The notes below the pieces were generated by a model, which saw nothing but the letters and a program-made list of their open reading frames with translations, was not told the DNA's origin and ran no database searches. From a virus (Duplodnaviria; Caudoviricetes), in IMG/VR virus record IMGVR_UViG_3300024346_000006: DNA of 64,000 nucleotides. One strand, given 5' to 3'. Both the position numbers and the translations under genes were made by a program. Positions 4,684-60,810 of this stretch are shown in pieces. Positions within the stretch are counted from its first letter, which is position 1. Each line of letters starts with the position of its first letter.

Positions 4684-6225
4684 ATGGCAGTCACTATCAA
4701 TGGTGGTAATTTAAGTACCAATTGTAAATATCTATCATACGGAGCATCTACGGCTGCAGCAGATGCGAAAACATTTCTTGTTGATATTACAGAAACCCTC
4801 ATCACAATGGGATGGACAAGATTTGATACAGCAGGAGCAGGACTCGTTCTAGGTACAGATGATAACTGTACTAGAGTTATTAGAAGACCAACTGCAGACA
4901 ATGCAACTTCTGGAAACTATCAATATCTTGGTATCACAATCTCACAAGGTGGAACAGCAAACGGTGGTGCAAACTACAGATTGCAATTCAATTATGCAGC
5001 AGATTGGACAGATGCAGCATCCGCAACAGGATATTCTAACCCAATCAGACTTCCTCATGGAACCGAAAGTAGTTGGTGGAAAAATGATGCTGGAGGCCCA
5101 TATGTAGATACAATGATTGGATATACTGCAGCTGGAACCATTTGGTTGTTTAACAGTCCTTACGCAACATCAATAGTATTTACAAATGCCGCACAGGTTA
5201 ATGACGGAACAAATGTTTTCTTCTTTGGAGAATACAACAAATCATTTGGTGAAAACATGCCGAGTGCAGGACAATATATCCACAATGGAATCTCATTTAA
5301 CGGAAGAGAACTTTGCGACCATGCTGGTGCAAACAGAGGAAACTCACCACTAATCTGTCAGTTGACAAATGGATATTCTTATAGTTATTATAGAGTCGAT
5401 GGTTGGAACAGTAACACCTATGGTGGTGCAAAGTCGATGGACGAAGGAAATATGTCTACAACCCAAAACAACTTTTCGTACCAAATCAACCAAAGAGGAT
5501 ATTCAAGACCACAATTTGTTCTAACTGAATATCCGACACATACAAATGGTTCGACTGGTAGAAGTGCTGGTAGAGGTATTGAAGGAACCCCAGAGGCATG
5601 GAACAACTCATATATTGGTGGTTGGAATACTCAATCTCCAACTAGATTGCATATGGGATGGTTAGGATGGGTTGGCCACCAAGGCCCAATGGCATATTGT
5701 CTGAGTTCTTATGGTACAACTTCAGGGACTCAGAACTCATCGACCTATCTGAATGGCGTAGGTAAAGCTTTCAATTCACACTTCTTTAATGGATTGGATT
5801 ATACTTGGGCTGGTGCAAAGGGTTGGTTGTCGGAATTTGGAGGTAAATCTCTTGACAGTCAAGATGATGGATTTGTAATATACGAACCATCTGTTAGTGT
5901 GGGTTCTACAGGAAAAATGGCCGGTACTAATATTTCCACAGGATTGAGCTGGCAAACAGGTAACTACACAAACACTAATTATACTCTTTATTCCGCATTC
6001 AATACACAGTCCTATGCTGGTACAAATATTAAATTCTCAGTAATGGGTAAAATTGCTGGTTTGAAGTTGTCTATGGGATTTTCAGACAACTTCATTGCAT
6101 TCTTGGATGCTGCATCAATTCCTGTTGACGCTGGTGGATATTTCCAGACAGGTGGTACTGACACAGATCACTGGTGTATTCCACTCAATGAAGGTGGCCA
6201 GGTTGTAATGTGGATGCCAAAATAA
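4684..6225 (+). CDS. Putative virion structural/receptor-binding protein (513 aa)
   Basis: G/T/N/S/Y/W-rich; own late promoter; located in fibre cluster. Confidence 0.55.
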   Translation: MAVTINGGNLSTNCKYLSYGASTAAADAKTFLVDITETLITMGWTRFDTAGAGLVLGTDDNCTRVIRRPTADNATSGNYQYLGITISQGGTANGGANYRLQFNYAADWTDAASATGYSNPIRLPHGTESSWWKNDAGGPYVDTMIGYTAAGTIWLFNSPYATSIVFTNAAQVNDGTNVFFFGEYNKSFGENMPSAGQYIHNGISFNGRELCDHAGANRGNSPLICQLTNGYSYSYYRVDGWNSNTYGGAKSMDEGNMSTTQNNFSYQINQRGYSRPQFVLTEYPTHTNGSTGRSAGRGIEGTPEAWNNSYIGGWNTQSPTRLHMGWLGWVGHQGPMAYCLSSYGTTSGTQNSSTYLNGVGKAFNSHFFNGLDYTWAGAKGWLSEFGGKSLDSQDDGFVIYEPSVSVGSTGKMAGTNISTGLSWQTGNYTNTNYTLYSAFNTQSYAGTNIKFSVMGKIAGLKLSMGFSDNFIAFLDAASIPVDAGGYFQTGGTDTDHWCIPLNEGGQVVMWMPK

Positions 6226-26998: not shown

Positions 26999-29125
26999 CT
27001 ATTTTTTAACCTTGGCCCACAAATCTGCATCACCAGTAGTTCTTGTTTTCCCACCTGTGATAAAAGAATTCACTCTCGCAAACGCCCATTGTTGTGGAGT
27101 AGTTCCCGGCCTGTGGCCACCCTTCCAGGCCGCCATACCTCTATCATATACCTTTTTTAGAATTTCATATGAAATACCAGATTTATCTGCCTTTTTAACT
27201 AATCCAGCAATCTTTGCTTCGTCTAATGTCTCTGTACTATCTTCGCCAAACATCTGCTTATATTTCTTAGTATATTGTGAAGGTTTCGTTTCTGCATCTG
27301 TATCTCCAGGCGCTGGTTTATAAGAAGAATCTTTTCTATCTGGTTTAGATGCCTGTTTTTTAAAATGAGCAGCTCTTTTATCTTTAGTAGACTTGGACAT
27401 CTCATCACCATCAGCATCTTTTGCATAATACTTTTTTGGTTGAGATCCCTCTTTGTCTTTGATATCTGGGTCTTGAGTTGTCTTTCTTTCGTAAATAAAT
27501 TGTGAAAAACTTTTTATATTCTCTTCTAAATCTTCCGCAGAATAACCAAGTTTCTTTTTTAGTATATTCATTGCAGTTGCCATCTTAACTTGCATCCACT
27601 CATCGCCGTATCTTTTCTTAAAATCATCATCTGGCAAATCTTTTGCAATCTTTTCTAAATCCTTTTCTCTTTCTGGATTCATCTTAAAATCTTCTAGTTT
27701 ATTTCCGTCCTTGTCGTACTTACCAGATTTCTTTTTCGCAATCGCAATCGCAGCCTGTTGAGCTCTAGATACACCTTCATCTTTTCCAGAAATCCTGTCA
27801 CGGAAATCTTTTTTAATTTCTCCATCTGTCACTTTCTCAACATCTTGAATAATCTTTGGATTTTTTAATAATTTGCGTAGGTTGTTTTTAACTTCCCCAG
27901 CACTACTTGCATCTATATAAAAAGTAGGTAATCCTTCAATATCTACTTGATAATTTGCTTCCTCAAGACTTTCATATTTTAATTCTTTACTTGATGTAGA
28001 AAAATTCTTTTTACGCATGATTGTTTTATGTACAACTTCAAACTCACCATTCTTGTAATTGATGACTACAGGCAGATTTAAATTAGTTGACATGTCTTTG
28101 AGAACTGCTTCGATATCAGGATTTGACTTAATCTGCGAACCTTTTTTCTTTTGAATCTTTTTGAAAAACTTTTGAAGTTCTGCAACTTTAATCTCTGGGT
28201 CATTTCTTTTATCATTCATTCTGTCAACAAAATGTCTTGTAAATGTAACATCAATATCATACTTTGCAAGCATTCTATCTGCAAACTTTTCTAAATCATC
28301 AATTTGTTTTTGAGACACTTCCTCATTATTGTATATTTTTTTATATACCGTATCATAATCATCATCAATACCAATTTTAAAATCTAACTCTTTATAAACA
28401 GATTCCATCAATATTTCATCTTCGATATCTTCTACAATCTCTACAAATTCTGTTTCAATAAAACGTGAAAAGTCTGCATTGGTTGCTTCAAGAAACTCTA
28501 ACAATTCTTCACTTATATTCATTGACTTTCTGAGAGTATCAAATAATTTTTTTCCATTAGACTTTTCAAAGTCAGAAGGCAAACCAGATTTAAATCCGTT
28601 GAGTATTTTACCAGTTTTCGGGTCTTTCTCATCTTCATATCTATTTGCAGCTGCTGCTGCTCTCATTTTAGATGCTGACATACCAGCAACACCCTCTGCA
28701 TCAGGATCTCTTTCCCCCGCAGAAACTACTTCAATACCATCTTTAAAATCATAGAAACCATGGCTTCCTTCTTTACCATTATATTTGTTAAGTGTAGTTT
28801 TAAATTCTGTAACTCTATCTCCACCGACAACCATAATACATCTCTTATAACCCATGTCATATAACATAGGAGCAATCATAAATGCAGTCTTTGCATTTCT
28901 ATTAGAGATGATATTGCGAGAATACTTTGGAAACATCTTTTTCATAAAACCAACTTTAGTTTTATGATCTAAAGGATCTTTTTTGTCATTTTGTGAATGA
29001 CTAGGAAATACCATAAAGTCGGCGCCTTCTTTTTTAGCAACCGATGCAAGTTTTTTTATTAATTTTTCGTGTCCTGTGGTTGGGGGATTAAACCTACCAA
29101 ATGTAAAAATTACTGTATCTTTCAT
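26999..29125 (-). CDS. Cytidyltransferase-like (HIGH-fold) nucleotidyltransferase fused to further modules (708 aa)
   Basis: FTFGRFNPPTTGHEKL, VVGGDR, MSASKMR; internal FTRHFVDR domain; C-terminal QWAFARVNSF module. Confidence 0.85.
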   Translation of the reverse strand: MKDTVIFTFGRFNPPTTGHEKLIKKLASVAKKEGADFMVFPSHSQNDKKDPLDHKTKVGFMKKMFPKYSRNIISNRNAKTAFMIAPMLYDMGYKRCIMVVGGDRVTEFKTTLNKYNGKEGSHGFYDFKDGIEVVSAGERDPDAEGVAGMSASKMRAAAAANRYEDEKDPKTGKILNGFKSGLPSDFEKSNGKKLFDTLRKSMNISEELLEFLEATNADFSRFIETEFVEIVEDIEDEILMESVYKELDFKIGIDDDYDTVYKKIYNNEEVSQKQIDDLEKFADRMLAKYDIDVTFTRHFVDRMNDKRNDPEIKVAELQKFFKKIQKKKGSQIKSNPDIEAVLKDMSTNLNLPVVINYKNGEFEVVHKTIMRKKNFSTSSKELKYESLEEANYQVDIEGLPTFYIDASSAGEVKNNLRKLLKNPKIIQDVEKVTDGEIKKDFRDRISGKDEGVSRAQQAAIAIAKKKSGKYDKDGNKLEDFKMNPEREKDLEKIAKDLPDDDFKKRYGDEWMQVKMATAMNILKKKLGYSAEDLEENIKSFSQFIYERKTTQDPDIKDKEGSQPKKYYAKDADGDEMSKSTKDKRAAHFKKQASKPDRKDSSYKPAPGDTDAETKPSQYTKKYKQMFGEDSTETLDEAKIAGLVKKADKSGISYEILKKVYDRGMAAWKGGHRPGTTPQQWAFARVNSFITGGKTRTTGDADLWAKVKK

Positions 29126-29796: not shown

Positions 29797-30339
29797 TTAC
29801 CAGAAAAAATTACCACCACCACTTAATCCAAGTTGTTTTGCATACTTTGGAAGTCTACATGCCCAATAGCCTGGTTTTGTCTTATCGTTTTTCTGATCGC
29901 AATTATGTCTTGCAACAAAACTCTTTCTTGCCTCTGGGTCATTAATTTTTGCAGTCAATCCTGTTGTATCCCCAAATGAAATCTTAATTACATTTCCTTT
30001 ATCATTTTTAACATATACATAATACTTTTTCTTACCACCCCTCTTTGGGGAATTCAATTCTACATCTTCTTCCATCAAGGGGCAGTCTAAAGGAACATAT
30101 ACGGCATCAAATTCTTGTTTCTCAAACATCGCCCACTCACCAATATCTGTTTGTAACATTTCAATGTCGTAAAGGTCAAACTCGAGCTTACCTTCTTCAT
30201 ATAATTTTCTCGCCACTCTAAAGGTTTTGTAAAAATTATTTGAACCTAGACGAAAGACATTATCAATTAGTGGTATTTCATTCTGTCTATGATACAACAC
30301 CATTTCTTCTATATTTTGAAACTGTTTATAAGTTTTCAT
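29797..30339 (-). CDS. Putative internal head protein (180 aa; start revised to 30339)
   Basis: Starts MKTYKQFQNIEE (ATGA overlap with upstream stop); C-terminal KYYVYVKN...FGD...ARKSFVARHNC...GYWAC module. Confidence 0.7.
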   Translation of the reverse strand: MKTYKQFQNIEEMVLYHRQNEIPLIDNVFRLGSNNFYKTFRVARKLYEEGKLEFDLYDIEMLQTDIGEWAMFEKQEFDAVYVPLDCPLMEEDVELNSPKRGGKKKYYVYVKNDKGNVIKISFGDTTGLTAKINDPEARKSFVARHNCDQKNDKTKPGYWACRLPKYAKQLGLSGGGNFFW

Positions 30340-30839
30340 CTCAATAACTTCTCCAATTCTCTCATAGTCTTCGCTGGATTGATATGACGAATACCAATAC
30401 CACCTTTCGCTTCCCATTCTTTTATATTCTTAGGATAATCATCAATTAGAATATTTGGTTTATCATTTGTTGTAGCAAATTTCTGTTTATCTTCTCGTTG
30501 GACTAAATGTATTTTTCCATTCAATCTCAAATTTTTTGAAATCCAAGCTCTTTTACCTTTTTGCGAATTCGAATCTCTTTTGGAATATGCAGATAAAATG
30601 TTTGCATTGTACTTGTTTAACATTTTCCACATCTTTTCCGAGCCTGACATCCATGGTAGGGTGTGCCAAAAATCTTTCTTGGATTTAATATCTTCCCATC
30701 TTTCTTCTTTGTCGGTTGATGCAAAGTCTTTATTAAATGCGGTTGTATAACCGCCTGTGAAATTACAAAGAACTTCGTCCATATCACAATAAATTTCTGG
30801 CATTTCTTTTTCAAAAATATATTGATTGAAAGTTTTCAT
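30336..30839 (-). CDS. HAD-family phosphatase (NT5C-like) with CTS-like N-terminus
   Basis: MKTFNQYIFE then IYCDMDEVL, ILSA, ILIDDYPKNI...GGIGIRH. Confidence 0.8.
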   Translation of the reverse strand: MKTFNQYIFEKEMPEIYCDMDEVLCNFTGGYTTAFNKDFASTDKEERWEDIKSKKDFWHTLPWMSGSEKMWKMLNKYNANILSAYSKRDSNSQKGKRAWISKNLRLNGKIHLVQREDKQKFATTNDKPNILIDDYPKNIKEWEAKGGIGIRHINPAKTMRELEKLLR

Positions 30840-31129
30840 TTCATTAAACCTTTTATTACTTTTAGTGCCATCTTACCATCTGGGTGATGCGGATTAATAC
30901 TGACTTCATCCCCATTAACAAAATCAGAAATACTAGCTGACTTGCCAAGAGCAGTAATTGCTTTGTGTAGTGGATCTTTTGGATCGTATCTTCGTTCAAA
31001 ATTGGGTTTTCCTCTTAGTTCGACCCAGCTCTTTTCTTTAGTATCCCACATCTTAAGTACATCTTGATCTTTACCACGAACCAATTTGAGCTTAATACCT
31101 TCAGAAAGATATTGAGTAAAACCTAACAT
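30836..31129 (-). CDS. Hypothetical protein with CTS-like N-terminus (97 aa)
   Basis: MLGFTQYLSE-GIK...; overlaps both neighbours. Confidence 0.65.
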   Translation of the reverse strand: MLGFTQYLSEGIKLKLVRGKDQDVLKMWDTKEKSWVELRGKPNFERRYDPKDPLHKAITALGKSASISDFVNGDEVSINPHHPDGKMALKVIKGLMK

Positions 31130-32073
31130 CAGTCATCGTCCATTTCGTCCATGATACTGTAATCATAAACAGCGTCGATGTAATCCTTTGCCTTCGTCAC
31201 TTTAGAAACTACCCACGCCTCCATTTCATATTCATTATTTTGTGGATTATCGACTTCTTCCATAAGTGCCTCTGCAAGTTCTGTGGACTTATTAGAAAGA
31301 ATGATGAGTTGTCTCAACATCATCTCCAAACTATCCTGTGCAAACTCTGCGTCTTCTATAAATAGTTCTTCTTTAATTCCTCTTGCGGCCTTTTCTGCAG
31401 AAATCCACTTTTTAGCGACAGTTTTAGTTGGTGATTTCTTTGTCCACGCTCCAATAGTTCTATATGCCCTCATAACATCTCTTTCAAAGTCTGCGCCGTC
31501 AGAGTTATCAATTACAAACATTTTTTCCTTAAATGCAGACTGAAATTTACCAATGTTTCCTTGAACACCTTTCCACATAGATTCAACTTCATTGTCTGGA
31601 AGACTTCTCGCTCTTAATCTATTTCGGTTTAATGCGGTGTCTAAATCGGTATTGACAAAAATCATTGCGGTTTCGTAACCCATCGCCTCTAACTTGTCTT
31701 TTTGTTTTTTAATTTTATCATAATCTTTTCCAGTACCATCGACAACAAGTCCAAGTCTACCCCTCATATATCCCGCCTGTTGCGCCGCAGTAAGTGCTTT
31801 TGCTTTACCTCTTACTTGTTGTCCAAGGTCAGAGAAAATATCATCTGGATTTCCTTTGTCCAGTCCCGACTTATCCAACGCCCTTTCAAATGCAGGGTCG
31901 GAGTTTACAACTCTCAATCCAAAAGAAGTAAGTGCAGTTCTACCTACAATAAAAGATTTACCAGAACCTGGCCCACCGGCGAGGAACACCGCCTTAAAGA
32001 TGCCTGGGTCATTGATACCTTCTTCTAAAGTTTCTTCATTTCTAAGATTTTCGATTATATTTCTTATATCCAT
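31129..32073 (-). CDS. P-loop kinase (zeta-toxin/polynucleotide-kinase-like; start revised to 32073)
   Basis: AVFLAGGPGSGKS Walker A, VNSD, LVVDGT, ALNRNRLRAR lid; extra C-terminal module after IKEE. Confidence 0.8.
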   Translation of the reverse strand: MDIRNIIENLRNEETLEEGINDPGIFKAVFLAGGPGSGKSFIVGRTALTSFGLRVVNSDPAFERALDKSGLDKGNPDDIFSDLGQQVRGKAKALTAAQQAGYMRGRLGLVVDGTGKDYDKIKKQKDKLEAMGYETAMIFVNTDLDTALNRNRLRARSLPDNEVESMWKGVQGNIGKFQSAFKEKMFVIDNSDGADFERDVMRAYRTIGAWTKKSPTKTVAKKWISAEKAARGIKEELFIEDAEFAQDSLEMMLRQLIILSNKSTELAEALMEEVDNPQNNEYEMEAWVVSKVTKAKDYIDAVYDYSIMDEMDDD

Positions 32074-32074
32074 T

Positions 32075-33328
32075 TTACTTGTCCCATGCCTTTGCTGCAG
32101 TAAAGTTATTATAACTAAATTCCATTCGATCAACAATTTTCACGGCATTACCCTTTGTATCAATTGCAACATAACCTTCTGGATTTGTCACTTCATAACC
32201 GTTTTCTGTACGAACAAAAATCTGCGTTAACTGTTTAACACTATTTAGTTTATTTATAATAAGAGATTTAGCACCAATTAATTCTTCCATAAAATCAACA
32301 ATTGAATATGCAACACTGTCTAATTTAATTAATTGTTTTACTGCATCATCTCTAATTCTTTCTTTATCTTTTCTTGCACCTTCTGTTTTTAACTTTGCAA
32401 TAACTTTTTCGTCAAAAAACTTTTTAACATACATCGAATAGTCTAAATTTTTCATGTTCTTTGTAGAAATATTCTGTCCTTCACGAATATATGTGTTGAG
32501 ATAGGTTTTGAAACTTGCACCAGCAAGTCCTTTAATAAAAATTTTGTTTTGGAGTTGCATAAATGTTTTAAAATCGTTTGATCTGATTTTCTTAAATTTT
32601 CTACCAACTTGAGACATTTGCCCATCGAGTGTTTTTAGTTCGGACGAAGTAAATTTTGCAGAACCAGAAACATCTTTATATGTTGCATCATCCATCCACA
32701 CAGATGATGTTTTCTTTAATCCAGATATATTCACACCAAAAGAGGCCGTCATCGATGGTAAATCTTTTCCAGAATATGTTGTATGCCAAACAACACCAAT
32801 CTTTGCAGCGTTGATTGCCTTTCCTAAATCAGAATCTTTCTGAACTGCATACATCAATGTGTTTTGTTGGAATGTTAGATATGTCTCGCCATCAAGTGTT
32901 TTTTCTGACACATCATCAGTAAACATTAAGTCTCCTTGAATAACACCCTTAATTCCCAATTTAGAAAATTCTCGATATGCAACAGTAAATTTTGATTTTA
33001 ATGCGGGACTTAGTTTTATATCTGCATCGATCTCTGCAGTACTTTTATATAATAGTGGAGTCTCATTAAATACAGATTTTTTTGCGATAAAGAATTTTCC
33101 ATCACTTGGATCTATTCCAGCGAATATAGCAGGAGCACCGTCCCACTTAACTGTCATGTTTACTTTAGAATCTGAATTTCCTGCCAACATGTCTCTTAAA
33201 GATAAAAGAAATTGTACAGCGGCACGGCCACCATCGATTCCAAAGTTGAGAATTTCATCTTCAAGGTGTTCTAAGTGTAGATTTTTTCCACCTTTTGATT
33301 CAGTAAGATATTTTTTAAATGATTGCAT
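32075..33328 (-). CDS. Putative ATP-dependent ligase-superfamily nucleotidyltransferase with CTS-like N-terminus (417 aa)
   Basis: MQSFKKYLTE; TVKWDG (motif I, K61), IQGDL (III), PEGYVA (IV), AVKIVDR (V). Confidence 0.6.
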   Translation of the reverse strand: MQSFKKYLTESKGGKNLHLEHLEDEILNFGIDGGRAAVQFLLSLRDMLAGNSDSKVNMTVKWDGAPAIFAGIDPSDGKFFIAKKSVFNETPLLYKSTAEIDADIKLSPALKSKFTVAYREFSKLGIKGVIQGDLMFTDDVSEKTLDGETYLTFQQNTLMYAVQKDSDLGKAINAAKIGVVWHTTYSGKDLPSMTASFGVNISGLKKTSSVWMDDATYKDVSGSAKFTSSELKTLDGQMSQVGRKFKKIRSNDFKTFMQLQNKIFIKGLAGASFKTYLNTYIREGQNISTKNMKNLDYSMYVKKFFDEKVIAKLKTEGARKDKERIRDDAVKQLIKLDSVAYSIVDFMEELIGAKSLIINKLNSVKQLTQIFVRTENGYEVTNPEGYVAIDTKGNAVKIVDRMEFSYNNFTAAKAWDK

Positions 33329-34689
33329 TAGTAAAGTTTCCCGAATGGCCCAAATATTTTCCCCTTCTTTTGGGCAAGATATGTTAAAGTTGTTAGTAAA
33401 TCATCTCTTTTTTCATCATTTGTGATGGAGACAATTTCACACACCAAATGGAGTTGCATCAATTTACTATGAGCATAATCTGGTCTTGATGTGTTAAATG
33501 CCGATACCATATTTTTTTGAAACTGGTTTTCGGTTATTCCTGTATATTGTTTTACTTTGTTGAATTTATATAAGAATTTATTATAATCGTTCATGAATTC
33601 TTCTTCAGATGTAGGATAGTTTGTATTATCATTATCCCAATTAAGGCCTTCGTCTGTAAAAATTTTTCTGGCCATGTCTAAAGGAACTTTACCAAGTCTT
33701 GCGGAAGTTGCGCCCAAGTCTGTTCCTTCAATTTTTAAATTATTAAAACCAGCACTATTTTGTCTGATTTGAAATTTAATTCTTCCCTTTTTACCTGATA
33801 CAACAATTTTGGTATCTGAGTTAACAAACTCTCCATTTCCCTTTGTCTTAAGATTGATATCGATGTCTTGTAATTTAAAGTTATATTCTTTATCATCAAA
33901 GATGTCCATGTTTTCTAGATTTACAAGTTCCCATCTTGCAGTTGTACCTGACATCTTTTTTAGGGAAATACCAACTATTCTTCTTTCATGGAACATATCT
34001 CTTAGAATGGCGTTAAATTCTTCTAGGGAAGTTACATCATCTAATACTTTTTCTTTTAAGGTGTTTTTTACTTTATTAAGGTCAGATACCAACCATATGT
34101 CTGCAGGGTTCCAAGTATCTTTTTTTGCAATACCATATTTTTGTTTACAAATTCCAGTAATGTAATCCATAAATCCACGGTCTCTGGAATAGTGTTTATA
34201 ACTACTGTTTCCGACTTTATTATATGTTGTTAATTGTTGCTGAAAGAATGTATTTTCCCATTCTTCATTCATAGCTGGATAAATCTTTTTTAGATCATCA
34301 CGGTATAGTTTCATAAACTTGCCTTGATCTGTGTATCCATTATTTTCAATACCCATTTTTATCGCAAAAAGGGAGGCGAGTTCTTGCATCTGGGTAGTTT
34401 TCCCATCAGAACCGCCTCCCATTCCACTAAAGGGTGCTTTATCTATTTGTGTCCACTTGTATCCATTAAAAATTGGAAGGTATTTACCACTTTTTGTCAA
34501 AGAACTCATAACTCTAGGTTGCGACTTGTCCTTCACTGCCCCAAGAAACTTCTTTACTTCTGGAGTCAATTGAACCATAGCCTTTGATCTATCCGCAAAC
34601 TTTAGTTCTTTTTTACTATTAATCACATCTGCAACCATATTCAAGTATGGTTTTTCAAACTTTGTTTCTTTTGCTCCAAGGTTTGCCAA
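33328..34689 (-). CDS. PD-(D/E)XK-like nuclease (453 aa)
   Basis: TQMQE...KDTWNPADIWLV...IVGISLKK pattern. Confidence 0.55.
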   Translation of the reverse strand: MANLGAKETKFEKPYLNMVADVINSKKELKFADRSKAMVQLTPEVKKFLGAVKDKSQPRVMSSLTKSGKYLPIFNGYKWTQIDKAPFSGMGGGSDGKTTQMQELASLFAIKMGIENNGYTDQGKFMKLYRDDLKKIYPAMNEEWENTFFQQQLTTYNKVGNSSYKHYSRDRGFMDYITGICKQKYGIAKKDTWNPADIWLVSDLNKVKNTLKEKVLDDVTSLEEFNAILRDMFHERRIVGISLKKMSGTTARWELVNLENMDIFDDKEYNFKLQDIDINLKTKGNGEFVNSDTKIVVSGKKGRIKFQIRQNSAGFNNLKIEGTDLGATSARLGKVPLDMARKIFTDEGLNWDNDNTNYPTSEEEFMNDYNKFLYKFNKVKQYTGITENQFQKNMVSAFNTSRPDYAHSKLMQLHLVCEIVSITNDEKRDDLLTTLTYLAQKKGKIFGPFGKLY

Positions 34690-34720: not shown

Positions 34721-34728
34721 TATTTATA
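34721..34728 (-). promoter_or_regulatory. T4-type late promoter TATAAATA
   Basis: Exact consensus 32 nt upstream of ORF 34689, heading the 13.6-kb coupled operon. Confidence 0.75.
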
Positions 34729-35382: not shown

Positions 35383-36755
35383 ATTTTTATCTCCACACTT
35401 CCGATTTTTTTCTTTCCTTCGTTTTGAAAATTCTTATAGGATGATGTACTCACTTCTGATACAATATCATTTTGTGCAGAATTTTCTGCATCGTAAAGAC
35501 GCATCTTTGGCCTATCGATTCCAACAACAAAGCGTTTATTATTGTTAATATCATTATATCTATTCTTCAACTGTTTAACCAAAATCTGATTCATGTCTTC
35601 CAACTCTTCAGTAGATATTAACGCAAACATCAAGTCTGCAGTCGCAGGAAGTCCAAATGACTCTGAAGTATCTGTTAATTCAACATCTGTATTTGAGTAA
35701 CCAGAACGAGTAGTCTGTGTTGCGGTGATGATAGGTACATCATTCTCAACAGCAAGTCCTCTCAGTTCTTCTGCGATTGATTTTACAAGTGTATAAGAGT
35801 TTATACCAGCACCATAACGTATTCTTGCAGAACTACAAATATTCAAATAGTCAATGAATATAACATCTGGTGTAAAGTTCTTTTTGATTTGTAATTCATT
35901 CAACAAATGTCTAAAGTGATTTGCATTAGCAACTGCAGTTGGATACTCTTTAATAATCAACTTACCAGTAGTTTTATTTTTAATCTTTTCTATTTTCTTT
36001 TCGAATGCAGATTTGGAAATACTTGAAACATCTGCGATAGAAATGTTAAGTAAGTTGGCATCAATTCTTTCTGCAATTTTTTCTTCAGACATTTCTAATG
36101 TAATGTATAAAACGTTTTTCCCCATCATATAATGGTTTGCAGCGAGATCACACATAAACAAAGATTTACCAACACCAGTACCAGCAAGAGCAACATTTAA
36201 TGTTTTGTTTGATAGTCCACCTTTGGTAATTTCGTTGAACAAGTCCAAATGAAAAGGTATCTTCTCTTCTACTCTATTGTAAAACTCAAATCTATCTTCA
36301 AAGTTATCGACAAAATCATGGCCAATATGTGTATCAAACGATACCGCAAGTGCATCTTGTAATATTTTTGGTAAGTCACCTTTTTGGTCTTGATGGTCGT
36401 TCAATATACCAATCGATTTCATGACTGCATTATATAATGCACGTTCTTGACACCACTTTTCGGTATGATCTACTTGCCAGTCAGTTTCTTTCTCATCTGT
36501 TTCTTTTAATTTCTCAATGAGGATAAGTGACTCTTTAAAATTATTTTCACTTAAACTAACATCATCTAATGATATCATCAAAGAGTCTTTGGTTGGCGTA
36601 GTATTGTATTTTTCGACATGACTACGAATCAACTCAAATATAACTTTATTTGACTCACTAGTAAAATAGTCTTTTTCTAGGTATGGTAATGTTCTTCGCA
36701 CATAATCTTCATTAGAATATAATGCACTTAGAATTACACTTTCACTTAATTCCAT
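35379..36755 (-). CDS. gp41: Replicative DNA helicase (T4 gp41)
   Basis: LAGTGVGKS, YITLEMSE, IFIDYLNI, ATQTTRSG, TSESFGLPATAD, QLKNRY. Confidence 0.97.
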   Translation of the reverse strand: MELSESVILSALYSNEDYVRRTLPYLEKDYFTSESNKVIFELIRSHVEKYNTTPTKDSLMISLDDVSLSENNFKESLILIEKLKETDEKETDWQVDHTEKWCQERALYNAVMKSIGILNDHQDQKGDLPKILQDALAVSFDTHIGHDFVDNFEDRFEFYNRVEEKIPFHLDLFNEITKGGLSNKTLNVALAGTGVGKSLFMCDLAANHYMMGKNVLYITLEMSEEKIAERIDANLLNISIADVSSISKSAFEKKIEKIKNKTTGKLIIKEYPTAVANANHFRHLLNELQIKKNFTPDVIFIDYLNICSSARIRYGAGINSYTLVKSIAEELRGLAVENDVPIITATQTTRSGYSNTDVELTDTSESFGLPATADLMFALISTEELEDMNQILVKQLKNRYNDINNNKRFVVGIDRPKMRLYDAENSAQNDIVSEVSTSSYKNFQNEGKKKIGSVEIKI

Positions 36756-37074
36756 TCAATTTATCCGCTTCATTATAAAGTTTTTTTGCTTCGGACTCTA
36801 AGGTCTTCGCTCTATTATGTAGTTCTAAAATCTTTTCTTCTTTAGTTAAAGTTTTTTTTTGATCGATCAAAGTAATTGTTTCTGGTTCTTTATCTTCAGT
36901 ACCATAAACTTCTTTCCACTTATCTGCAGGACATCTTAGATTTGCAATCTTTGCTTTTGCAGGCATAAAACATCCACACTTTTTACATACGAGGGCCAAA
37001 CCTTGAAAGTGTTCGCACCCTCTACAAGTATTGAGTCTTTGTTTATACACATGTTTAGAAGCAAAGATTTTCAT
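36742..37074 (-). CDS. Small Cys-rich protein (110 aa)
   Basis: CRGC...CKKCGCFM..K......CPADKW followed by a coiled coil. Confidence 0.65.
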   Translation of the reverse strand: MKIFASKHVYKQRLNTCRGCEHFQGLALVCKKCGCFMPAKAKIANLRCPADKWKEVYGTEDKEPETITLIDQKKTLTKEEKILELHNRAKTLESEAKKLYNEADKLNGIK

Positions 37075-60174: not shown

Positions 60175-60810
60175 TTAAAGTTTTGACACAAAATTTTTGA
60201 AAACTCTCAGTTTTGTTTCTTCTAATTGTTGCCTTTTGGCCTTTTTAAGAGAGTCTTGGTATTCTGCAATTTGAGCTTCTTTAATAATACCGTTGTCCCA
60301 AACCCACTCTCTACCTTCCATAATACCTTCTACAAATGCATTGGGTGCGGAAGGGTCTGCAACAATGTCAGCAGCAGTTGCAAGATAAAAGTCATCTTGA
60401 ACAACATTTGCACCACCTGACTGTTTTACACTACCCATACCTCTAGAAGAAACACCTAAAGATGCACCTTCTTTGATGAGGTTGCTAACGATAGCACCAT
60501 AAGGAGTATCAGTCATAATTTTTGCTTTACCAACAAAGTTATCACCATCTCTCTTAAGTTCTTTAATCATATGGGAAACTCTTTCCAGATTGATAGTTGG
60601 GCCTTCTGGGTGTCCAAGTTCTCCAAATGCTCTATTTTTTTGAATGTAGTTTTCATTATATCTTTGAACTTCTCTTTCGAGAACTTCTGTAGGATACACT
60701 CTACCATTTCTATTTTTGACATTTGATTGTAAGAAAATGCCTTCAATGAAAAGGTCTTTTCCTTTGGATTCTACCAGAATGTCTTCAACTACTTCCGTAA
60801 TTAGTTTCAT
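60175..60810 (-). CDS. gp21: Prohead protease (gp21)
   Basis: MKLITE, NRNGRVYP, GELGHP, GVSSRGMGS, DIVADPSAP. Confidence 0.97.
   Translation of the reverse strand: MKLITEVVEDILVESKGKDLFIEGIFLQSNVKNRNGRVYPTEVLEREVQRYNENYIQKNRAFGELGHPEGPTINLERVSHMIKELKRDGDNFVGKAKIMTDTPYGAIVSNLIKEGASLGVSSRGMGSVKQSGGANVVQDDFYLATAADIVADPSAPNAFVEGIMEGREWVWDNGIIKEAQIAEYQDSLKKAKRQQLEETKLRVFKNFVSKL

Follow-up and report, generated by a model that had tools for sequence, protein, structure and literature searches.

What is the function of the 417-amino-acid protein encoded on the minus strand at positions 32075..33328 of a 64,000-nucleotide stretch of viral DNA, IMG/VR record IMGVR_UViG_3300024346_000006? The stretch as a whole, hereafter the window, comes from a marine T4-like myovirus (~35% G+C), and the open reading frame, which starts with ATG, was singled out in a preliminary description for carrying the motif set of the covalent nucleotidyltransferase superfamily of ligases and capping enzymes. 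That description called the protein unannotated. A family does exist: the protein belongs at full length to Pfam PF19782 (DUF6267; E 5.5e-98, 329.2 bits against a cut-off of 27), its residues 16–413 spanning profile positions 1–376, and it also matches phrog_455. Both families carry the label “unknown function”, DUF6267 is named in no paper that we found, and literature searches on cyanophages and RNA ligase gave no account of it. We propose that the gene encodes a candidate ligase-type covalent nucleotidyltransferase: judging from fold prediction and conservation, the protein very probably has a ligase fold with an intact active site and would work like a ligase of that superfamily.

All the motif strings quoted in the preliminary description are found in the 417-aa translation, in the order that it gave: motif I, TVKWDG (residues 59–64; 33137..33154); motif Ia, FFIAKKS (residues 79–85); motif III, GVIQGDLMF (residues 128–136; 32921..32947); motif IIIa, IGVVWHTTY (residues 177–185; 32774..32800); motif IV, NPEGYVAID (residues 382–390; 32159..32185) and motif V, AVKIVDRMEF (residues 395–404; 32117..32146), all on the minus strand. 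We aligned 59 single-domain homologues that are 34–64% identical to the window protein. The conserved core consists of motifs I, III, IIIa, IV and V, with invariant residues in motif I (K61, D63 and G64), motif III (Q131 and D133, with G132 in at least 90%), motif IIIa (G178, H182 and T183, with Y185 in at least 90%), motif IV (E384, G385 and V387) and motif V (K397, R401 and F404, with D400 in at least 90%). Motif Ia contributes K84, and P66, G71, P74, N156, T157, Y160 and N278 are invariant as well. The preliminary description had staked its case on K61, D63 and the glutamate of EGxV (E384); none of them varies, even among these diverged homologues, and K61 is the predicted nucleotidyl-accepting lysine. 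An element specific to the family, HLEHLED (33257..33277, minus strand), with H18 and H21 invariant, stands ahead of a long helix (residues 22–48); this invariant H-x-E-H-x-E-D and the helix, both preceding motif I, are a departure of DUF6267.

An AlphaFold2 model built from the homologue alignment has a mean predicted local distance difference test score (pLDDT) of 91.9 and a predicted template modelling score of 0.89. Its strands 57–61, 129–136, 177–186, 385–389 and 395–398 hold motifs I, III, IIIa, IV and V, respectively, with K61 at the end of the first strand and the rest of motif I in the loop that follows. Residues 228–362 (32243..32647, minus strand) are purely helical as assigned by DSSP, forming a 135-residue module between the strands of motifs IIIa and IV, which bears out the “long helical insertion” noted earlier. 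The earlier statement that no OB domain is evident also holds for the model: past motif V there is no beta-barrel but one helix only, because the protein ends 13 residues beyond that motif.

By means of VIA-align, and independently of Foldseek, we compared the model with each of 48,161 representative PDB chains. For the whole model, the first four ranks were REL1 of T. brucei (Z 8.1, 190 residues aligned, root-mean-square deviation 4.0), Naegleria NgrRnl (Z 8.1, 183 residues aligned) and two fungal Trl1 structures (Z 7.7 and 7.5). T4 Rnl2 scored 7.3, T4 Rnl1 7.2 and archaeal Rnl3 6.5; DNA ligases III and IV and those of T7, Chlorella virus and archaea scored 6.3–5.5, and the non-ligase rows are helical bundles that fit the insert. 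As a Z near 8 may reflect a common arrangement, of which the tool warns, residues 13–226 were folded alone (pLDDT 88.7). Just 235 chains reached Z ≥ 2 with this domain model, and ranks 1–16 were all RNA or DNA ligases, including REL1 (6.2), Rnl2 (5.3 and 5.2) and Trl1 (5.0), whereas DNA ligases reached at most 4.6. Ligases, capping enzymes, the Pnkp ligase domain and snurportin fill about 35 of the first 50 places; T4 DNA ligase, the adenylation domain of NAD+-dependent LigA (Z 3.1), capping enzymes and Pnkp ligase occur at lower ranks. Judged by these rankings, the model adopts the ligase nucleotidyltransferase fold, as the preliminary description called for.

The aligned range shared by the domain model and Chlorella virus ligase opens with model residue 47 and residue 25 of the chain; provided that no gap falls in its first positions, K61 (residue 49 of the domain model) lies opposite residue 27 of that ligase, a correspondence that is read from the range ends and that agrees with the assignment but is not a proof. 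Residue 27 is what we take to be the adenylated lysine of the Chlorella virus enzyme. In an enzyme of this kind, the invariant residues would be expected to line one nucleotide pocket.

Several results weigh against the assignment. Among all PDB sequences, neither phmmer with the window protein nor hmmsearch with the 59-sequence profile gave a relevant match, and no sequence method (phmmer, hmmsearch or hhalign) was significant for any ligase family. The alignment of the DUF6267 profile to T4 Rnl1 by hhalign covers motifs IV–V only, with E 0.02–0.1 even when low-mact and global modes are included. Both VIA-align scores of REL1, 8.1 and 6.2, fall in the range for which the tool warns of a possible common arrangement. 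Foldseek found nothing at E ≤ 0.001 for the whole model among PDB and Swiss-Prot models, probably because of the helical insert, its best rows by “probability”, which are non-significant, being a Thermococcus DNA ligase and REL2; for the N-terminal domain model against the PDB it gave nothing significant either, with a handful of DNA ligases and one capping enzyme amid the noise. Finally, the usual Glu is absent from motif III, which reads Q-G-D, and the second Lys of K-x-K is absent from motif V, which reads K-x-x-D-R. The Z values being modest, the case for the fold depends on how pure the hit list is, in addition to motif conservation; for the domain as modelled, that purity cannot be chance. 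Among the AFDB clusters there is a match, with E 2e-4, to an “RNA ligase domain-containing protein”, and a fold search of the ESM Atlas returned other DUF6267 clusters only.

To which of the known ligase families is DUF6267 closest? T4 Rnl2 (gp24.1; 1S68, 2HVQ) and REL1 (1XDN) are the best structural matches. They share with it the EGYV of motif IV and a helical module in place of an OB domain, and their structural alignments begin ahead of motif I, in the HLEHLED segment. In Rnl2, however, the helical module is appended after motif V and not inserted between motifs IIIa and IV, and motif I is KxHG instead of KxDG; the QGD of motif III, the K-x-x-D-R of motif V and the invariant N-terminal HxEHxED also set DUF6267 apart. 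The window protein has no match to PF09414, the Rnl2-type family, at E ≤ 1, none of the 59 homologues matches that family, and hhalign of the DUF6267 profile against T4 Rnl2 is noise (probability 0.2).

T4 Rnl1 (gp63; 9DO4) and the fungal tRNA ligase Trl1 (6N0T, 9R3W, 9QW7), at Z 7.2–7.7, belong to the only family with any sequence signal. Four of the 59 homologues weakly match PF09511 (RNA_lig_T4_1; best E 6e-4, below the cut-off), and hhalign against T4 Rnl1 or an alignment of 35 Rnl1 sequences pairs E384 with E227 and K397 with K240 (PEGYVAxxxxGxxVK / IEGYVAxxxxGxxFK; EGYVA(x6-7)K). As in Trl1 and in the T4 pair of Pnkp and Rnl1, DUF6267 is tied to a PNK-type kinase, to which it is fused in the protein P0165. 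Unlike Rnl1, the window protein has no match to PF09511, the essential upstream residues and the K-x-K motif V of Rnl1 find no counterpart, and the order of domains differs. NgrRnl (Rnl5; 5COT), tied for the best whole-model match, seals nicks and, like DUF6267, lacks a C-terminal OB domain; it has an N-terminal OB-like domain, whereas DUF6267 has the long helix and the inserted helical bundle, and there is no sequence similarity between the two.

The ATP-dependent DNA ligases (T4 gp30, T7, Chlorella virus, LigI/III/IV) have the nucleotidyltransferase fold and a KxDG motif I in common with DUF6267. The motif III of DNA ligases and capping enzymes is D-G-E-L-V, from which the Q-G-D-L-M of DUF6267 differs by conservative changes, and the phyletic pattern of DUF6267 is complementary to that of gp30. 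In contrast to these enzymes, DUF6267 has no OB domain, the window protein does not match PF01068 (DNA_ligase_A_M), the structural scores are lower than those for RNA ligases, and in the phage S-CRM01 both kinds of protein co-occur. NAD+-dependent LigA is represented by its low-scoring adenylation domain only, and no match to PF01653 was found in the phage records. In short, the window protein is set apart from Rnl1, Rnl2, Rnl3, Rnl5 and the DNA ligases by family hidden Markov models or by domain order.

The gene lies in an operon of closely spaced genes. A T4-type late promoter, TATAAATA (34721..34728, minus strand, as are all features of this region given below), is found 32 nt upstream of the first gene, which encodes a 453-aa protein (33328..34689; phrog_1462, function blank) and whose stop overlaps the DUF6267 start (TAATG). 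We considered this upstream gene as a conserved partner and rejected it: it occurs in 9 of 80 loci only, and the upstream genes in phages S-SZBM1 and Melnitz are unrelated. Downstream of the DUF6267 gene follow a P-loop kinase of the Zeta-toxin/AAA_33/polynucleotide-kinase type (31129..32073; Zeta_toxin 1e-9, AAA_33 1.9e-6, phrog_505 polynucleotide kinase 5.6e-5), a 97-aa protein starting with MLGFTQYLSE (30836..31129), a HAD-type, NT5C-like phosphatase starting with MKTFNQYIFE (30336..30839; NT5C 8.2e-9, phrog_2643 7.3e-34) and a 206-aa protein (29797–30417; phrog_7595, function blank). The C-terminal part of the latter recurs in 30 of the 80 loci, often fused inside large transferase polyproteins of 914–1269 aa.

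Beyond other small genes comes a 708-aa protein (26999..29125), which by Pfam and PHROG matches combines an N-terminal HIGH-motif, NMNAT-like nucleotidyltransferase with further modules and DUF5824; the transferase carries GRFNPPTxGH ... SGMSASKMR. It looks like a polyprotein, with the transferase at residues 1–215, a phrog_23027 module at 270–378 (FTRHFVDRMNDKRN...) and DUF5824 at the C-terminus; an internal leader-like sequence, NIKSFSQFIYE, occurs at residues 536–546 (about 27488–27520), with LEE just before it. In P0183, the phrog_23027 module is fused directly ahead of DUF6267.

Immediately upstream of the DUF6267 unit, and on the same strand, are the genes for DNA polymerase, UvsX, gp41 helicase and a 2OG-Fe(II) oxygenase, with a small DUF6171 protein (36742–37074) encoded between uvsX and gp41; UvsW, gp46-like, gp20 portal, gp21 protease, gp22 scaffold and gp23 capsid genes are found elsewhere in the window. 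Because a late box precedes the unit, we regard it as a late operon that follows the replication genes and is not part of them. Indeed, TATAAATA occurs 16 times in the window against 6.5 expected, a number reached in none of 100 shuffles. Several copies just upstream of structural genes (56973, 58997, 60163, 61269 and 63403, all on the minus strand) are consistent with T4-type late promoters. Four reference phage genomes were compared (Melnitz, S-PM2, S-CRM01 and S-RIM2). The closest isolate is Methylophilales phage Melnitz, with a DUF6267 protein 58.7% identical and the same gene order. Boxes of the form (T/A)ATAAATA, either TATAAATA or the cyanophage form AATAAATA, precede the DUF6267 unit in Melnitz, S-CRM01, S-PM2 and S-SZBM1. 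In S-CRM01 (locus L004), an annotated rho-independent terminator at 5963–6019 is followed by AATAAATA and the DUF6267 start within 30 nt, which cleanly sets off the late unit from the replication genes.

In the survey of 80 related IMG/VR loci, many of them short, a homologue of the HIGH-motif transferase was the most constant partner, being present in 60, usually 0–450 nt downstream of DUF6267; gp41 lies upstream in 45. The transferase is often fused to a P-loop kinase in a NadR-like layout. In numerous related loci (L046, L050, L052, L057, L058, L064, L065, L072, L073 and L075), transferase and kinase form a single protein of ~430 aa right after DUF6267, with the domain order of NadR (NMN adenylyltransferase plus ribosylnicotinamide kinase). 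DUF6267 itself occurs fused to the transferase in either order, and to the kinase in P0165; a search of the N-terminal extensions of 28 DUF6267 fusion proteins for Pol-beta signatures and Pfam matches gave HIGH-motif transferases and one P-loop kinase only. In an ESM Atlas cluster of 65 viral proteins, DUF6267 is joined to a Cu/Zn superoxide dismutase domain.

Is the protein packaged into the virion, as the preliminary description proposed? Its first ten residues, MQSFKKYLTE (33299..33328, minus strand), resemble a T4 capsid-targeting sequence with a predicted cut after E10. Both ipII and ipIII of T4 start with MKTYQEFIAE, with which the leader agrees in F4, Y7, L8 and E10; positions 4 and 7 steer targeting, while positions 8 and 10 steer processing by gp21 (PMC9026906). 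In a six-frame scan of the window for M-x-x-[FYW]-x-x-[FYW]-[LIVM]-x-E followed by at least 50 codons, three matches were obtained, all of them at gene starts in the operon (DUF6267, the 97-residue protein and the phosphatase). The leader fits the strict pattern in 31 of the 59 homologues, the Melnitz protein, which starts with xINFSKYITE, has one of the same kind, and residues 1–12 of the model have pLDDT < 50. A gp21-type prohead core serine protease (60175..60810, minus strand; PF03420 Peptidase_S77, 4.8e-37) is encoded in the window, adjoined by gp22, gp23 and gp20, and the gp22 scaffold is recognised by T4_CASP (1e-60). The leader positions, the protease and the late promoter support packaging via MQSFKKYLTE indirectly, and on balance we lean towards the DUF6267 protein being a component of this phage's virion. 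The likeness to T4 IPII and IPIII (and Alt) lies in the leader positions, in the late gene and in the presence of protease and scaffold; the difference is that the cargo would here be a ligase-fold enzyme and that we infer its packaging. We know of no ligase among the known T4 head-internal proteins.

In DUF6267 fusion proteins, an [LIV]-x-E site occurs 3–6 residues ahead of the HxEH motif, which suggests junctions of the kind expected for polyproteins cut by the head protease. As to virion content, the partner transferase S-SZBM1_140 was detected in purified virions (PMC9146016); S-CREM2 virions contain the partner transferase ORF154, and cytidyltransferases are frequent in cyanophage virions (PMC10665884). 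Two observations count against packaging of DUF6267 itself in cyanophages: the cyanophage proteins start with MAKNxHLEHLED and have no leader, and the leaderless homologue S-SZBM1_141 is not in the 30-protein virion list, in which the products of genes 140 and 139 do appear. Leaders are distributed in a complementary manner. The DUF6267 proteins of S-SZBM1 (L091), S-CRM01 (L004) and S-PM2 (L003) have none, the leader being found instead on the neighbouring transferase or kinase (MRFRQFIIE in S-SZBM1 gene 140; also MKLFNQFFKE and MISFDQFLSE); in the window, DUF6267 has the leader and the transferase begins directly at MKDTVIFTFGRF. Among the 43 loci where both N-termini are readable, at least one member of the pair is leader-like in 40. 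That one member carries the other into the head is a speculation.

How might such an enzyme act? K61 of KxDG would attack the alpha-phosphate of ATP, another NTP or NAD+, forming a lysyl-NMP intermediate, with D133 (motif III), H182 and T183 (IIIa), E384 (IV) and K397 and R401 (V) holding the nucleotide and the metal. The NMP would then be handed to a 5′-phosphate end, and the 3′-OH would seal the break. The substrate is clamped by C-terminal helical domains in T4 Rnl1 and Rnl2 and by the OB domain in DNA ligases; in DUF6267, the helical module at residues 228–362 may take this role. We consider it likely that the protein is a true strand-joining ligase. Broken RNA, as for Rnl2 and REL1, is judged the most likely substrate, and the adjacent PNK-like kinase and HAD phosphatase could form with the DUF6267 enzyme a set for end healing and sealing. 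The protein would be made late and probably enter the prohead by means of its 10-residue T4-type leader, which the gp21-type protease would trim after E10, the enzyme being delivered with the DNA. Taken as a whole, a polynucleotide-ligase-type covalent nucleotidyltransferase, with RNA as its most likely substrate, expressed late and loaded into the head, is the explanation that we favour, with somewhat better than even confidence.

The distribution of the family bears on the choice of substrate. DUF6267 comprises >8,000 clusters at 90% identity that passed a word filter, and 2,567 representatives at 50% identity (E ≤ 0.001). It is viral: no copy was found in 14 control cellular genomes or in T4, no enterobacterial T4-like phage is among the matches, and Melnitz, S-PM2, S-CRM01 and S-RIM2 have one copy each. 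Cyanophages of the S-RIM2 type encode a 298-aa version in which the helical insert is shorter (~80 residues) and every motif is kept (HLEHLED, TKWDG, QAD, HTSY, HEGFV, KLVDR). A first tblastn search had suggested that only ~100 phage records carry full-length DUF6267; this proved an artefact of divergence, the rest holding the 298-aa version. With the latter as a query, 371 Synechococcus-phage and 61 “Cyanophage” records match, as compared to 366 and 61 for UvsX; because these counts are on a par with those of UvsX, DUF6267 is effectively universal in T4-like cyanophages. In a six-frame search, Melnitz and S-PM2 gave no match to PF01068, PF01653, PF09414 or PF09511, the T4 controls being positive, and tblastn of T4 gp30, the S-CRM01 DNA ligase, T4 Rnl1 and T4 Rnl2 against the window returned nothing below E = 1, in agreement with the earlier remark that it lacks a gp30-type ligase. 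S-CRM01 encodes, besides DUF6267, a separate ATP-dependent DNA ligase. The gp30 ligase is a core protein of the non-cyanophage T4-likes only (PMC5349666; PMC2993671).

These data fit a DNA role equally well, DUF6267 being universal in a phage group without DNA ligase. DUF6267 could be the missing DNA ligase of the cyanophage and pelagiphage branch of the T4-like phages, a non-orthologous replacement of gp30 that would seal nicks in replicated and recombined DNA, including repair before packaging. In addition to its occurrence in essentially every T4-like cyanophage record and its absence from T4, from the control genomes and from the enterobacterial T4-likes, the constant position of the gene after gp43-uvsX-gp41 speaks for this; moreover, the T4 ligase is reportedly needed late too, for encapsidation (the work of Zachary and Black in 1981). 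The model, however, has no OB domain, which to our knowledge is present in every characterised DNA ligase, and RNA ligases outrank DNA ligases structurally. The possession of both proteins by S-CRM01 is at odds with a replacement of gp30; so is Stenotrophomonas phage DLP6, which has a gp30-type ligase, inasmuch as one Stenotrophomonas phage record matches DUF6267, although its identity with DLP6 is unconfirmed. Further points tell against it: the gene belongs to a late transcription unit of its own, which in S-CRM01 follows a terminator; the protein of the window phage bears a head-targeting leader; and the constant partners (kinase, phosphatase and NMNAT-like enzyme) are no parts of the replisome. 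All in all, we think a gp30 replacement unlikely. The earlier preference for an Rnl2-like RNA ligase over a DNA ligase is mildly sustained by the structural ranks and by the lack of an OB domain, but the gap in Z is small. We put RNA slightly ahead on account of the closest structures, the missing OB domain, the kinase and phosphatase neighbours and the separate DNA ligase of S-CRM01; RNA rather than DNA as the main substrate is a tentative choice to which we give just under an even chance.

It is also conceivable, albeit quite improbable, that DUF6267 joins no strands at all and is a covalent nucleotidyltransferase that only nucleotidylates some target, be it a protein, a small molecule or the 5′ end of an RNA or DNA, perhaps with NAD+ supplied through the NMNAT-like neighbour. 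The constancy of the HIGH-motif transferase as a neighbour, its fusion to DUF6267 in both orders and to a kinase in a NadR-like architecture, and the deviation of motifs III and V from the ligase consensus would suit such an enzyme. The NMNAT signals, on the other hand, are weak and below every significance threshold (TIGR01526, E 0.0015; NadR and MJ0541, E 0.5–0.8), and the nearest structures are all true ligases. The existence of the superoxide dismutase fusion means that fusion partners may reflect co-packaging as polyproteins and not one pathway, as the cleavage-like junction sites also suggest; this weighs against reading a shared pathway from the fusions with the transferase or the kinase. 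A catalytically dead ligase-fold protein serving as a structural or scaffolding internal head protein would be in keeping with the head-targeting leader and with late expression, and inactive derivatives of the fold do exist, snurportin being in the hit list of the domain model. The catalytic positions are nevertheless invariant even in members of 34% identity, across a family of 2,567 clusters at 50% identity, which is not expected for a dead enzyme, and we regard this last possibility as very remote.

If the polynucleotide-ligase explanation is correct, what would it mean for these phages? Among the most abundant viruses of the sea are the T4-like cyanophages and their relatives that infect SAR11 and methylotrophs. 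They have long been noted as lacking the DNA ligase of T4 and both of its RNA ligases, and DUF6267 is a candidate for this missing sealing activity. One may go further and picture DUF6267 as a new family of polynucleotide ligases, the sole ligase of the dominant T4-like phages of the oceans (cyanophages, pelagiphages and methylophages), here loaded by its T4-type leader into the capsid alongside a kinase, a phosphatase and an NMNAT-like enzyme. Injected with the genome, the set would heal and seal ends from the outset of infection, repairing phage or host nucleic acid that host defences have cut. That full scenario is speculative, and we hold it doubtful in its entirety; if true, a virion-delivered ligase would be, as far as is known to us, the first.

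With this analysis, a family so far of “unknown function”, whose clusters at 50% identity number at least 2,567, gains a concrete biochemical identity that can be put to the test. The architecture is new for the superfamily, with a helical module inside the catalytic domain, changed motifs III and V and an N-terminal pair of histidines; it could widen our knowledge of how ligases grip their substrates, and might provide a new enzyme for the laboratory. The leaders on DUF6267 and its neighbours, in turn, suggest that marine phages may inject, with their DNA, a group of enzymes acting on nucleic acids and nucleotides.

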